The notes beneath the pieces are model-generated. The model made no database searches, was not told the DNA's origin, and saw nothing but the letters and a program-made list of their open reading frames with translations. Below, piece after piece: positions 1-4,423 of a DNA stretch of 64,000 nt. The DNA comes from Planctomycetota bacterium (GTDB lineage Bacteria; Planctomycetota; UBA1135; UBA2386), in contig OZ245006.1 of the NCBI GenBank assembly GCA_965223545.1, forward strand, positions 2,016,001-2,080,000. Direction: 5' to 3'. Position numbers and translations under genes: made by a program. Numbering within the stretch: position 1 is the first letter of the stretch; every line of letters begins with the position of its first letter.

Positions 1-1008
1 CCTCTGCTCGACCACTACCGCCAGCACCCACCGGTCGCCGCGGAGCTGGCGGCGGTGTGCGCCCGGCCGACGGTGTGCTTGATGCCCGGCAGTCGCCGCG
101 CCGAGATCGAGCAACACCTGGCCCCGTTCGTCGCGATCGCCCGCCGGCTGCATCGCGACGACCCCAACCTGCGCTTCGTCATCCCGCACGTCGACCCGCG
201 CCGCGCGCGCCAGATCGAGCAGCGACTGGCCGGCCTGGATGCACCGTTCATCGAGCTGCGCGTCGGCGCGATCGGTGCGTGGTTGGCGGGCGCGCGCGCG
301 GTCCTGGTCAAGTCGGGCACCGGATCGCTCGAGGCCTGCCTGCACGGCACCCCGAGCGTGGTGGTCTACAAGCTGAGCGGCCGCTCCTGGCAGTGGATGC
401 ACCGCAACGCGCTGATCGTGCCGTGGGTCGCGGCCGCCAACTTGGTCGCCAACGCGCCGGTCGTACCCGAGCACGTGTTCTTCGACGACGACGGCTGGGC
501 CGCGGTCGAGGAGTCGCTGCGCGCGCTGCTGCGCGACGGCGAGACCCGCGAGGCATGCGTGGCGGGCCTGGCGGCGGTCCGGCGACGCCTGGGCGGCGCC
601 GGCGCCAGCGAGCGCGTCGCGCGCTGGTTGGCGGCGACGCTGGCCTCCCCCGCGGAACTCGCCGACTCGGAGCTCGAGCCCTACCGCGACCTGGCTCCCG
701 AGGACGCCGACGCCGCACTGCGCACCGACCCCGAGCTCGCGGTACTGGACGTGCGCACACCGCCCGAGCACGCCCGGCACCGCCTGCCGGGCAGCCAGCT
801 GATTCCGGTGCACGAGCTGCCACGCCGCCTCGACGAGCTCGATCCCGCACGACGCTACCTGGTCGTCTGCGAGCACGGAGTGCGCAGCGTCGCGGCCTGC
901 GAGCTCCTCGTCGAGCACGGCTTCGCCGCGATCGCCAACCTCAACGGCGGCATGGCACACTGGCTCGCGCGCGGGCTGCCCGTCGAGCGTGGAACGACAG
1001 AGCATTAG
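1..1008 (+). CDS. lpxB: Lipid-A-disaccharide synthase (5'-truncated by window edge) fused to a C-terminal rhodanese domain
   Basis: Frame 1 is open from base 1 (PLLDHY..., cf. LpxB VGHPLLD). It has LpxB motifs LMPGSRRAEI, KSGTGSLEA, PSVVVYK and NLVANAPVVPE. The last ~110 aa are rhodanese-like (LDVRTPPEH, HRLPGS, VVCEHGVRS, NLNGGMAHW). Confidence 0.88.
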   Translation, partial: PLLDHYRQHPPVAAELAAVCARPTVCLMPGSRRAEIEQHLAPFVAIARRLHRDDPNLRFVIPHVDPRRARQIEQRLAGLDAPFIELRVGAIGAWLAGARAVLVKSGTGSLEACLHGTPSVVVYKLSGRSWQWMHRNALIVPWVAAANLVANAPVVPEHVFFDDDGWAAVEESLRALLRDGETREACVAGLAAVRRRLGGAGASERVARWLAATLASPAELADSELEPYRDLAPEDADAALRTDPELAVLDVRTPPEHARHRLPGSQLIPVHELPRRLDELDPARRYLVVCEHGVRSVAACELLVEHGFAAIANLNGGMAHWLARGLPVERGTTEH

Positions 1009-1199: not shown

Positions 1200-1560
1200 T
1201 GGAGGTACACGAGGAAGTGTCTGCCTTCGTCACCAGATCGCGAAGTGCAAAGGAGCAGCGAAGCGGGCAGCGAGGGAGGGGTCGGTTTGTAGTCACCAGT
1301 CACCAGCTACCTCTACGCAAACAACCGAGGACGACGGGTGTCCGCGCGTCAGACGGGCAACGACTGCTGCGTCCGTTCCAACGCCTGTATTCTGTCCCTC
1401 GGGGCCGGCAATTCTGACTCTTCTTCTCGAAGGGTCCTTGCTCTGCTTGAACGCTTGAACGCCTTGACCTTGTGCGGAATAAGCCCATTCTGCTTCCACA
1501 CTCGATTCAATATCGACTGCGTGATCCCTGAATTCTCCGCGAGAGATTGCACTTCTGCAT
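1200..1560 (-). pseudogene. Degraded IS630-family transposase remnant
   Basis: Minus-strand fragments in shifting frames resemble successive IS630 motifs: SLAENSGITQSILNRVWKQNGLIPHKVKAFK (HTH), FKQSKDP, IQALERTQQSLP and TGDYK (cf. THDYK). A short tandem duplication, gcttgaac x2 at ~1446-1461, coincides with a frameshift. Confidence 0.7.
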
Positions 1561-2442
1561 CACACCACTGAACCAATCGTGCAAGGCATCGCATAATGCG
1601 CCATCGACCTTAGCGTCGAACACGGCAAACATCGGCGACGAGTTGACTTCGAGAAACATCAAGTCACCTGTGTCAGCGCAGGTCTTGAAGTCCGCTGCCG
1701 CGAAGTCTAGACCAACGCCGTCGCATAGAGTGAATAACTGCGTCGGCAGCGATGGCGGCAACACGTCCAGCTTCACTGGAACGACCTCGCATGCGCCCGT
1801 TCGCCGGTAGTCGAGTTCGCTCGAATCCATCCGAAATCCGAAGCACCGACTGCCAATCCGGTAGACGCGGTACTCCGGTGCAACCAGCCGTGGCTGCACG
1901 ATCGCTGGCGCAGCAGCAACGCCGCCCCTCTCTTCCGCCGCAGCGATCGCTGCATCCGCGGTCTCGCAGAATCCACCACCGTCAACAGGCTTCACCACGA
2001 GCCCCAACGCACCGGCCACACTCGCGATCCGGTCTACCTCATTCGAGACCAGAGTGAACGGAACACTGAATCCGACCTCGCGAGCAAGCGCCAACATCTG
2101 GGGCTTGTTAGTGACTCGGACTCCCGCGACTCGGTTGGGCATCGCCACATCCGTGTGTGCCATCAGCCATCCCTGGATCGTCGTGTACCAGGCGTGAGCG
2201 CGTCGCGCGACGACGGGCCGCGGATCGTCGAGCTCAGAAAACACGTCGTAGCGGACGAACCCAGCCGACGGCCGAACATGGCGCCCCTCGACAATCAGCC
2301 GATCCTCGACGACGTCCCAGGACAAGCGCGGGGCACGACCCGGACCTACCCAGAGTTCGAGTGTCTCGACGCCGCGCGTTCTGGCGCAAGCGGCAAGCCG
2401 CCTGAGATTCGGGTCGTCAGGGCCACCGGCGATCAGAAACAC
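1507..2442 (-). CDS. ATP-grasp peptide macrocyclase (graspetide synthetase, MvdC/MvdD/PsnB-like RimK superfamily)
   Basis: Motifs TNKPQMLALAREVGFSVPFTLVSN, VVKP, PAIVQ, EYRVY, LDYRR (DxR motif of graspetide ligases), AADFK and FLEVNSSP. The GTG start follows the tyrosinase TGA-TAG double stop directly. Confidence 0.88.
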   Translation of the reverse strand: MFLIAGGPDDPNLRRLAACARTRGVETLELWVGPGRAPRLSWDVVEDRLIVEGRHVRPSAGFVRYDVFSELDDPRPVVARRAHAWYTTIQGWLMAHTDVAMPNRVAGVRVTNKPQMLALAREVGFSVPFTLVSNEVDRIASVAGALGLVVKPVDGGGFCETADAAIAAAEERGGVAAAPAIVQPRLVAPEYRVYRIGSRCFGFRMDSSELDYRRTGACEVVPVKLDVLPPSLPTQLFTLCDGVGLDFAAADFKTCADTGDLMFLEVNSSPMFAVFDAKVDGALCDALHDWFSGVMQKCNLSRRIQGSRSRY

Positions 2443-2445
2443 CTA

Positions 2446-3624
2446 TCAGAACCCACCGAAAGGGCTCCGCGGATCGCCTCCGCGGAATGGCTCTGGATCG
2501 TCGATGCGCGGGTCGGTCGGGCCCTCGCCAATGAACCTCGTCGGCGAGCCTTCCTCGCCCAAACGCAGCGTTGTCGGACCGCCTTCCTCCCCGACACGAA
2601 GCGTTGTGAGGTCCTCTCCTTGGGGTAGGGTCGGCACGGCCTCTTCGCCAATCCACTGGGATATCGGCTCCTCCCAGCGGGGAAAGGTTGGACGAGCCGC
2701 GCGCTCGGGGCACGGGCAGCCCTCTTCGTCATCGTAACAGTAACCTACATCCCGGTGATCGAGGACCATTTCAGGTGTAACAACATCCGTGACGGGGTAG
2801 CTCGGCACCAACGCGGCCATACCGGCGGCGGTTGTCTCCGATGCGCTCGCATCCCACGGCCACATAGGGTCAGTCAGACGATGTCCCTGCCCCCCCGTGT
2901 TTAGGGGGTTGTAGTTTGCGGCACCTGGATGATCTCTTTGCCACTTGGCCCAGATCCGATCGACCTGGGCATGGTGCAACCAGAAGATCGGATCGTTGGG
3001 CGAAGTCATCTGGCTCATGTCACGCCCAAGCCGAACGTGAACAATCCCGTGTGGCGGCCATTCGAGTGCGGGCCGGAAAAGGTTGAAAGTTGGCAGCGCC
3101 AAGACAGCCGCAACCGAAGCTGCCGTTGGCCACGGTGCGCCCCGGTTGAGGGCAGTGTTCCGCTGCAACCCGTCGCCGAATCTCTGCAGTTCCGCGCGAA
3201 TCGGAAAGCCCAGCGGATTGAGCGCGTTGGGGTCGCGTGCGAAGTAGCCGGAGTCGACTGTGAACGTCCCGGCCGCGCCGAGCGGGCCGAGCCGATCGTC
3301 GGCGAACAGACCAATCTCGTCGTCGTCGTCGCCTAGGCCCCAATTCCAGTAAGGGAGCGTCACGCGGGCATCGACCGACTGAAGGGCCTGCTCGAACCGC
3401 TTCAAGTACTCGCGGTGCCACGGCAAGAACGCGGGGCCGCCGTGGGCACCGTCCGTGGTCTGCGCGCCATTTAGCTGAGTAACTCCAACGTGAAGGGCTA
3501 CGAACATGTCGTACACACTGATCCCCGATCCTGGCGGAAACGTGTGCTTGAGTGTGACAACCGCCGTGAGGAACCTGTGCCACTCCTCAGCGGAGAGACT
3601 GCTGGCGTTCTTGCGCACGTTCAT
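2446..3624 (-). CDS. Tyrosinase (type-3 dicopper, MelC2-like) with a C-terminal graspetide-core repeat tail
   Basis: N-terminus MNVRKNASSLS with RBS AGAGGAGG. All six Cu-ligand His are present: VALH, AHGGPAFLPWHR, PHGIVH and NDPIFWLHHAQVDRIW. The YxY end motif (GYCYD) is followed by a ~90-aa tail of T/S-xxxx-E/D repeats. Confidence 0.92.
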   Translation of the reverse strand: MNVRKNASSLSAEEWHRFLTAVVTLKHTFPPGSGISVYDMFVALHVGVTQLNGAQTTDGAHGGPAFLPWHREYLKRFEQALQSVDARVTLPYWNWGLGDDDDEIGLFADDRLGPLGAAGTFTVDSGYFARDPNALNPLGFPIRAELQRFGDGLQRNTALNRGAPWPTAASVAAVLALPTFNLFRPALEWPPHGIVHVRLGRDMSQMTSPNDPIFWLHHAQVDRIWAKWQRDHPGAANYNPLNTGGQGHRLTDPMWPWDASASETTAAGMAALVPSYPVTDVVTPEMVLDHRDVGYCYDDEEGCPCPERAARPTFPRWEEPISQWIGEEAVPTLPQGEDLTTLRVGEEGGPTTLRLGEEGSPTRFIGEGPTDPRIDDPEPFRGGDPRSPFGGF

Positions 3625-3665
3625 CTCGGTTTCCTCCTCTCTTGATCGCTGCGTGTGATCGCCTA

Positions 3666-3965
3666 TCACGCGCGACCGTCTACGATCGCGCGCGCGAGTT
3701 CATTGGCCGAACCGTACCTCTCGTATGGCTTTTCGGTCGAATTATACTGGCCAGTGTCGGCATCGCGCGCGAACAAGATGGGCTCGTCATCTATCTTGAC
3801 TTGTTCGTCGGCCCCATCTAGCTGCACGACAATACGACAATCTTTGTAGACTGTGTCCGATACGATCGACGGCTTCCCGGCCTTTTTGCTCTTCCCGGGC
3901 TTCTTGCTCTTCCCGGGCTTCTTGCTCTTCCCGGGCTTCTTGCTCTTCGATTTGTTGCTCATCAC
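3666..3965 (-). CDS. Tyrosinase cofactor/caddie protein (MelC1-like), no Tat signal, Lys-rich N-terminus
   Basis: DTVYKDCRI..VKIDDEPI..RDADTGQYNS..PYERYGSANELARAIVD parallels MelC1 (DEVYKGRRI..VFIDG..RNADGSWIS..HY..AARAAVD). It lies directly upstream of the tyrosinase on the same strand. Confidence 0.8.
   Translation of the reverse strand: MMSNKSKSKKPGKSKKPGKSKKPGKSKKAGKPSIVSDTVYKDCRIVVQLDGADEQVKIDDEPILFARDADTGQYNSTEKPYERYGSANELARAIVDGRA
3873..3948 (-). repeat. 18-bp tandem repeat (~4 copies) encoding SKKPGK
   Basis: ttcttgctcttcccgggc is repeated exactly at 3901-3918 and 3919-3936, with partial or degenerate flanking copies. Confidence 0.92.
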
Positions 3966-4423
3966 CCTTCTCTACTGTTGTCCCATCGAAAGATGAGCGC
4001 CATACCACTGCCGGACGGTAACTTTAAGCGTAACCAAAGTGGCGCCCCCGCGTCACGGAATATTTCCAACAGCTACCGCGAGAGCCAATCGAGGTAGCTT
4101 GGGCTTCTGTCTAGGTCCAGTGGCGCGTCGTCACCACCTCCACAACGCCTTACGTTCGTGCAAGTTCGTCGCAATACTGTTTGGCTGACGTGAGCTGGTT
4201 CTTCTGCGCACCGGAGTGCCTGCGTATTCGAGCTGGCGATTACCGTGCCGCCACGGCGTTTCGGGTGCCAAGGCCAAGCGTTCGGCCTCTTTCTCCTTGA
4301 GCGCTTAGTAGAGGGTCTTCTCCCCCGTCGGCATATTCAGCACACAAGACAACAGTGCAGGTCGGCATGCCGGCCTGGGTAACGGTTCACAGCGATGTCG
4401 GATGGGCCCGGCCGCGCCGCGCA

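Follow-up and report, generated by a model that had tools for sequence, protein, structure and literature searches.

In the Streptomyces melC operon, the gene for a caddie protein (MelC1), which carries a twin-arginine signal, lies directly upstream of that for a type-3 copper tyrosinase (MelC2). A tyrosinase with an inactivating C-terminal extension has also reportedly been found. Plesiocin, a graspetide of Group 2a, is made from an array of TTxxxxEE cores in the precursor PsnA2 by one ATP-grasp ligase, PsnB (PDB 7drm-7drp). In the part of the PsnB preprint covered here, which cites Lee 2020 for Group 2a, TTxxxxEE is defined as the core motif, PsnB is reported to form the T2-E7 ester first and the T1-E8 ester after it, and R101 of PsnB binds the Glu of the second ring (10.1101/2021.03.09.434688). 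A single ring is made by RcpB on the VTxxxxED sequence of RcpA, according to the available text of PMC11626197. For the fuscimiditide pair ThfA1/ThfB, the available part of PMC13003496 describes an engineered construct in which ThfB still functions, at roughly half the rate, after transfer of the leader to the C-terminus, and gives RPFG as the recognition motif of graspimiditides.

We analysed a window of 64,000 nucleotides from a Planctomycetota bacterium (contig OZ245006.1), the minus strand of which carries a three-gene island encoding a MelC1-like caddie, or copper chaperone (99 aa; 3666..3965), a tyrosinase with a C-terminal tail (2446-3624) and a PsnB-like graspetide synthetase of the ATP-grasp ligase type (311 aa; 1507..2442). 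The tyrosinase frame encodes 392 aa from an ATG at 3624, 8 nt behind an AGGAGG ribosome-binding site recognizable in the sequence (3633..3638, minus strand), to a stop at 2446, and the GTG start codon of the ligase lies 3 nt past that stop (TGA TAG GTG). The order caddie, tailed tyrosinase, ligase recurs at L005, where the ligase lies 10 nt downstream; L005 is the only other tailed tyrosinase locus with DNA, and ligase adjacency thus holds at two of two loci. Among the 84 tyrosinase loci L001-L084, ligase-profile matches were confined to L005, L021 and L058, and none occurred at the eight close non-tailed tyrosinase loci with at least 3 kb of downstream sequence. Caddie-type genes were detected by tblastn upstream of related tyrosinases in L005, L006 and L014. 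Promoter and terminator scans gave results at chance level only.

The island has a GC content of 0.55-0.67; the first kb of the window stands at 0.73-0.77 and the sequence beyond position 4,400 at about 0.65-0.73. No close tyrosinase was found in the 60 relatives searched, five of which gave distant partial matches, and no ligase of the window's clade in 400 genomes of the same phylum, where 11 distant ligases were present. From this GC content and these two absences, we infer that the island is an acquired cassette. A scan of genome contigs returned four distant tyrosinases, none of them tailed; relatives of the ligase were found in no viral contigs and no plasmids, and three cyanobacterial genomes gave no ligase match. 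A sequencing artefact joining two genes was ruled out by 26 other fused homologues and by agreeing contigs: positions 1450-3915 are spanned by one contig of run X1 and covered by two contigs of X4 (X1 and X4 being two samples of one study), in each case with zero differing letters. Run X1 may be where the window itself comes from. Elsewhere in the window, a single open frame at 1-1008 (plus strand) holds an LpxB domain and a rhodanese domain, and a subtilase gene of host-like GC (PF00082; 4424-6622, minus strand) lies upstream of the caddie on the same strand. At L005 no subtilase lies directly upstream of the caddie, and the subtilase was dropped as a candidate fixed part of the system.

The caddie and tyrosinase work like the MelC1/MelC2 pair and are not equivalogs of it, the NCBIfam cut-offs for the Streptomyces MelC1/MelC2 equivalogs being missed (163.9 bits where 450 are required, and 15.3 where 120 are). 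The caddie matches NF047833 weakly (E 0.016), and unlike that of the melC operon it shows no twin-arginine signal in its sequence; its Lys-rich N-terminus is encoded by an 18-nt tandem repeat (3873-3944) that codes for KKPGKS. The tyrosinase domain (residues 1-305; 2710..3624, minus strand) matches PF00264 (E 3.8e-38) and retains two copper sites with six His residues that are conserved in the alignment (H45, H61, H70, H192, H196 and H218). Its fold matches are Bacillus and Streptomyces tyrosinases, with that of Bacillus megaterium (4j6t) the best at E 1e-18; the six copper ligands and this fold identify a MelC2-like type-3 copper tyrosinase. In the predicted model, confidence is high over residues 1-309, and residues 310-392 are disordered. 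Signal peptides are absent from the tyrosinase sequence, and neither it nor the caddie bears an export signal. At the end of the tyrosinase domain lies the sequence YCYDDExxCPC (2710-2740, minus strand), a possible metal site or disulfide that is also present in tailed and many non-tailed relatives. The core array and the ligase gene are additions relative to melC.

The cores lie within the final 85 codons of the tyrosinase ORF, a stretch whose fusion to a complete tyrosinase domain is not part of the first-pass observation. The first-pass annotation had parsed this tail into seven x[TS]xxxx[ED]x units with T/S at position 2 and E/D at position 7, and all seven were recovered in frame within ORF 2446-3624 on the minus strand: PTFPRWEE (2668-2691), ISQWIGEE (2641-2664), PTLPQGED (2611-2634), TTLRVGEE (2584-2607), TTLRLGEE (2551-2574), PTRFIGEG (2521-2544) and PTDPRIDD (2497-2520). 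The divergence of their DNA, which it had also described, was borne out by copies that are just 64-79% alike. When the 88-residue tail was shuffled 20,000 times, the mean was 1.75 units, seven units were never reached, and two TTxxxxEE cores arose in 11 shuffles. Only two of the seven, TTLRVGEE and TTLRLGEE (block 2551..2607), are canonical plesiocin-type, bicyclic cores, for each of which two esters would be expected. The three degenerate units PTFPRWEE, ISQWIGEE and PTLPQGED (2611..2691) could form the inner T/S2-E7 ring, the outer ring being impossible, and the last block (2497..2544) joins the degenerate PTRFIGEG to the TDPRIDD unit, which is conserved in homologous tails as TDPR[ILV]DD. 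The tail thus presents the TTxxxxEE signature of Group 2 (plesiocin-type) as two canonical cores plus five degenerate units; unlike in PsnA2/PsnB, five of the seven units are limited to one ring.

Since PsnB closes T2-E7 before T1-E8 and RcpB makes a single ring on VTxxxxED, four Thr-Glu esters are expected by analogy, two per canonical core; the figure of up to about nine esters proposed at first is a ceiling. Units with a Ser donor, as in ISQWIGEE, or an Asp acceptor are the least sure ring formers. The tail had also been read as a natural library of diversified loops with the potential to inhibit serine proteases. PTDPRIDD proved instead to be a fixed motif, with TDPR[ILV]DD present in 9 of the 27 tails found among the best 120 of 1,421 homologues and TDPR[ILVA]DD in 15 of 120 other tail-profile matches. 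Canonical loops in homologues lean towards LALG-like sequences (LALG itself in 19 of 85), and this tendency together with the fixed TDPRIDD weakens the library reading.

Tailed tyrosinases number 27, including the query, among the best 120 of 1,421 homologues. In sister tyrosinases, the same C-terminal slot is filled by P-domains, lectin domains or other tails, or by nothing. On a FastTree phylogeny of 57 rows, which left out two partial proteins and all those shorter than 300 aa, the tail label needs 10 changes, and at least seven of these changes are forced by starred branches. Given these repeated changes and the varied domains in the slot, the core-array tail is an exchangeable C-terminal module. 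No conserved GG or other cleavage site was found at the domain-tail junction of the 27 tails. A distant Myxococcales tyrosinase (P0331 / P0212; 35% identity in the best alignment) carries about 20 TTxxxxEE cores and ends in PFGRY; its tail is probably a separate fusion.

Tyrosine is absent from all 2,507 residues of the 27 tails, which are kin, whereas it makes up 40 of 5,406 residues across 49 other precursors that end in PFG-type motifs; 19 of those 49 contain Tyr. The enzyme and its core share one chain beside the ligase at both loci, an arrangement that would suit a tyrosinase acting as a tailoring enzyme on its own core peptide. We rejected this as barely credible: its tails offer no Tyr, and unrelated domains fill the same slot in sister tyrosinases. 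The Tyr-free composition hints at a tail that may stay near an active tyrosinase.

The ligase finds its best of six PDB matches in 7drm (E 1.7e-14 with the single sequence, E 1.4e-31 with a profile), which we take to be PsnB, since the residues that the PsnB preprint names correspond to its own once an offset of 20 is applied; TIGR04187 also matches (E 1.3e-20), below that family's cut-off. PsnB residues R72, K172 and R213 and its DFR loop correspond to R64, K151, R192 and DYR211-213 of the window ligase, and these, together with E265 and N267, are invariant in 32 aligned rows (the query plus 31 of 82 homologue matches). In these rows, invariant equivalents exist for the PsnB residues that bind the core and catalyse the reaction. 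The enzyme is thus a single adjoining synthetase that is nearest PsnB and has its catalytic residues in place, as in Group 2, and six of its homologues are filed under that group in the RODEO survey table (PMC13097080, table as covered).

The leader-reading side of PsnB is different. The Group 2a pocket (Y171, R181, R192, I193, L196, V201 and F203, plus R101) is not kept in this ligase clade: with PsnB numbering mapped by hand at the offset of 20, the 77 of 82 matches that fit the pattern have V or I in place of F203 in 74 cases and A in place of V201 in 71, and in the ligase homologues L196 is mostly replaced by R, A, V or I. The position of R101 lies within an insertion that the profile of this ligase family lacks. 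Ligases associated with LFIEEL leaders retain both L196 and F203. A quick tree with midpoint rooting, built from 39 rows (26 drawn from the 82 matches and 13 ligases from the loci, PsnB not being included), places the window ligase in a clade of 26 rows with an SH-aLRT of 100, which stands apart from the ligases whose neighbouring precursors bear HPF or LFIEEL leaders. The terminal motif described below is missing from those precursors.

The branch of the window ligase is long (0.81), and five of the seven core units are degenerate, as would be seen if the tail were decaying in this genome and little modified or functionless. We hold this to be very improbable, given that degenerate units are usual in the family, where 84 of 153 units are bicyclic-capable, that positions 2 and 7 are held despite the divergence of the DNA, and that the catalytic residues of the ligase are intact. 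Modification of the tail by the adjoining ligase is very likely.

The tail terminates in PFRGGDPRSPFGGF (2449-2490, minus strand), of which PFGGF (2449..2463, minus strand) is the putative follower, a tag for recognition by the ligase. In the 27-row alignment, F389 is invariant and G390 and F392 are kept in at least 90% of rows. The first-pass annotation had proposed SPFGGF as a follower; a conserved terminal motif is indeed present, and its extent is smaller, conservation being limited to the final five positions, [PAVI]FGx[FYR], so that SPFGGF and the 14-mer were rejected as motifs. The annotation had further noted the lack of a leader motif, and LFIEDL-like, HPF and PFF motifs, including the N-terminal LFIEDL leader of Group 2a, are absent from all 27 tails. 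PFGxF itself is conserved as it had asked, in 24 of the 27 tailed tyrosinases, in 11 short leaderless precursors and in the partners of all six survey-listed ligases. Within the best 120 of 1,421 homologues, 24 of the 27 tails, and none of the 93 other tyrosinases, have [PAVI]FGx[FYR] within their final 15 residues, and the motif is found in none of the 82 ligases. The motif stands at the exact end in 19 of the 24 motif-bearing tails and 2-9 residues from it in the other five; one of the three tails without the strict motif ends in PFGG, and two end in FDRF or FNRF variants.

A two-sequence profile of the tail searched against 1.84 billion representatives gave 122 matches, 120 of them new, and removal of one with fewer than two cores left 119 precursors. 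With the N-leader scored as HPF or L[FY]I[EK]DL, 50 precursors have the C-terminal motif only, 32 the leader only, none both and 37 neither; these are counts without a p-value, as the patterns were fixed after the results had been viewed, the search profile contained PFGxF and kin are not independent. The motif is at the exact C-terminus in 48 of the 50. Fifteen precursors have a first core that begins no later than residue 16, and 11 of them terminate in PFGxF. A word-based search with the tail alone returned one weak match, without PFGxF.

An approach from the ligase side gave the same association of this clade with the motif. Among nine ligase homologues with NCBI accessions, found via the ligase sequence alone, six are in the RODEO table (PMC13097080, table as covered) and the three missing from it are partial proteins; the partners of all six end in PFGx[FY] and are without an LFIEDL leader in that table. 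Five of the six ligases come from Pyrinomonadaceae and one from Nitrosospira lacus, so they are not independent. When 100 Group 2 rows of the survey were inspected by eye, nine ended in the motif and all nine were free of HPF- or LFIEDL-like leaders; rows that did have a leader of either kind never ended in the motif, and a few leaderless-looking rows among the 100 were without it. Leaderless or beta-domain-fused precursors that end in PFGx[FY] and go with ligases of this clade are thus already catalogued, as Group 2 rows in the covered part of PMC13097080 and, in one case (cluster10071), in that of PMC8939145.

A conserved post-core sequence and no leader, the features of a follower-guided RiPP, are therefore present at the sequence level, and unlike PsnA2/PsnB the window system combines this post-core tag with the fusion of its cores to a 305-residue enzyme. 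PFGxF is probably the recognition element of the ligase, as its conservation across precursors suggests; against this count the 37 of 119 precursors that carry neither leader nor terminal motif and the three tails without the strict motif. It fits both the leader signature Phhx(1,2)h, given in the covered part of PMC8939145, and the RPFG motif of graspimiditides, and PF-type motifs of this sort are known to mediate the recognition of leaders. In a complex prediction of ligase residues 1-296 with the last 34 residues of the tail, the scores were 0.12 and 0.02, against a mark of 0.32. The likeness to engineered ThfA1/ThfB lies in a synthetase guided from the C-terminal side and in RPFG; the differences are that the latter is a laboratory construct, with what its authors call an 'unnatural C-terminal leader', that it belongs to another graspetide group, and that its recognition motif is not at the chain end, unlike PFGGF in the window (PMC13003496, as far as its text was available).

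The word 'follower' had no matches in the main texts of PMC13097080 and PMC8939145 or in the RODEO supplements, within the portions covered, and a natural follower-guided graspetide was not found in the titles and abstracts searched. Where the word does appear in the text available, it denotes the engineered ThfA1/ThfB case, a dispensable tail (PMC12848669) or the residue after the aspartimide (10.1101/2023.06.21.545981). A tyrosinase term or sequence motif was likewise not found in the covered supplements of PMC13097080 and PMC8939145; no description of the follower or of the fusion to tyrosinase was found in the literature covered.

The ligase could instead read the Glu-rich cores directly, with PFGxF serving some other partner, for instance a protease, exporter or sorting factor. 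The core of PsnB's precursor raises its affinity about sixfold in the covered part of the preprint (10.1101/2021.03.09.434688). The motif almost always closes the chain, a position that sorting tags often occupy. We regard this alternative as unlikely, since the terminal motif and the N-leader are mutually exclusive (0 of 119 with both), the motif tracks a single ligase clade across several phyla, and the window island and L005 have no second gene in common that might encode another partner. A further possibility is that an internal acidic mimic of LFIEDL is recognized, namely TDPRIDD behind the cores or the PR[FLW]E[DN] units that precede them: TDPR[ILV]DD is fixed in a third of the tails (9/27), and PRxE[DN]-type units recur across several. 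Neither element is universal, the short leaderless precursors consist of cores and PFGxF only, and the leader-reading Arg residues of PsnB (R181, R192) are not conserved in this clade, which makes it quite unlikely.

Further endings and fusion partners were seen among Group 2 precursors. About 14 (counted by eye), including P0235, P0236, P0239, P0242, P0247, P0255, P0256, P0275, P0280, P0306 and P0309, end in W[KN]xF[RG]RW-like sequences, mostly with RRDFL near the N-terminus, and this ending is possibly a second type of follower. The commonest fusion partner of PFG-ending core arrays is a beta-sandwich domain of about 105 residues (P0213 and relatives, 28-row alignment), for which 30 Atlas matches had no common Pfam family and Foldseek gave no match at E 0.001 or better; VIA gave middling matches to NigD-like proteins (Z 6.8, rmsd 3.3, 99 aligned). 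PrcB_C domains are another partner.

We propose that a mobile three-gene island yields a cytoplasmic tyrosinase that would be loaded with copper by the caddie, and that its disordered C-terminal tail would serve as the substrate of a Group 2 graspetide system. The ATP-grasp ligase encoded downstream would dock on the terminal PFGxF, a follower in place of the N-terminal leader, and phosphorylate Glu7 and then Glu8 of each TTxxxxEE to close Thr-Glu esters. The product would have two bicyclic hairpins, to which the degenerate units would add at most five single rings. The stapled tail would most likely remain attached to the enzyme, as an exchangeable accessory module that is resistant or inhibitory to proteases. 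Taken as a whole, we consider this proposal fairly probable.

For the last step, the main rival is a classical RiPP, compatible with the follower, in which a host protease would free the tail as a multi-ring serine-protease inhibitor with varied loops and the tyrosinase would be only a carrier. Plesiocin inhibits serine proteases and becomes more potent as rings are added (PMC13097080, part covered), the same module is found as free short precursors and on PrcB_C and Inhibitor_I9 domains, and the subtilase gene lies just upstream of the island. By contrast, the island encodes neither a peptidase nor an exporter and its proteins lack signal peptides; a GG or any other cut site is not conserved at the junction. 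The GC of the subtilase is host-like and the gene has no counterpart directly upstream of the L005 caddie, and the loops are not hypervariable across homologues. Release is accordingly a rather doubtful reading. A retained appendage is favoured because of the missing peptidase, exporter, export signal and junction cut site, with further support from the variable domains in the same slot and the at least seven forced tail changes; we give retention of the tail on the tyrosinase a little better than an even chance.

Other graspetide-type tails also occur on tyrosinases. At L021:5001-7913, a tyrosinase with a Lys/Glu repeat tail and an HFISPALRPDL motif is followed immediately by an ATP-grasp-like gene pair, of which the second matches TIGR04187 (E 8.9e-39) and the first has no NCBIfam match; P0014 and P0016 have the same tail type, which resembles Group 32 rows of the survey table (PMC13097080, table as covered). 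Such Group 32-type enzymes share with the window a folded enzyme, a repeat tail, a conserved post-core motif and adjoining ATP-grasp genes, and differ in their Lys/Glu cores, their HFIxxxxRPDL motif, their pair of ligases and a ligase of another clade. At L018:500-2307 and L058:721-2584, a small upstream gene (with a weak MelC1 match in L058 only) precedes a tyrosinase with (PTLKFxDD)-type repeats, followed by APFVL[AS]TPHH, a probable coiled coil and an MvdD-type ligase (PF21068, TIGR04187); the L058 tyrosinase gene has one N and a frame break. These represent a third kind of graspetide-like tail on a tyrosinase. P0076, P0090 and P0091 are tyrosinases with K/E repeat tails ending in a FIKxxERP motif, and two of the three are named from Thaumarchaeota or Nitrosopumilus-type sources.

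In conclusion, the locus represents a conserved Group 2 variant in which the enzyme-borne core array is real and the ligase clade very probably reads a terminal PFGxF. Graspetides described in the literature covered are leader-guided, and a March 2026 paper, in its available part, presents a C-terminal leader as an engineering first, so a natural clade guided by a terminal tag would revise this scheme. It would also explain dozens of leaderless precursors already in survey tables, while surveys that score short ORFs only are likely to miss enzyme-fused substrates. A C-terminal tag would free the N-terminus, so that the core array could become a portable 'staple tag' on folded proteins, and, together with its enzyme, would offer a minimal tool with which the C-terminus of any protein could be given stapled rings.

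We think it somewhat more probable than its opposite that graspetide synthetases are also protein-modifying enzymes, that a widespread Group 2 clade reads the terminal PFGxF and the core array is thereby a portable staple tag, and that tyrosinases have acquired tags of three unrelated graspetide types, each with its own ligase: TTxxxxEE with PFGxF, K/E repeats with HFIxxxxRPDL, and TLKFxDD with PFVL[AS]TPHH. If so, natural follower-guided graspetides and the stapling of enzyme tails would form a recurring post-translational system, and an enzyme that bears its own macrolactone array raises the question of what use stapled tails are to proteins.
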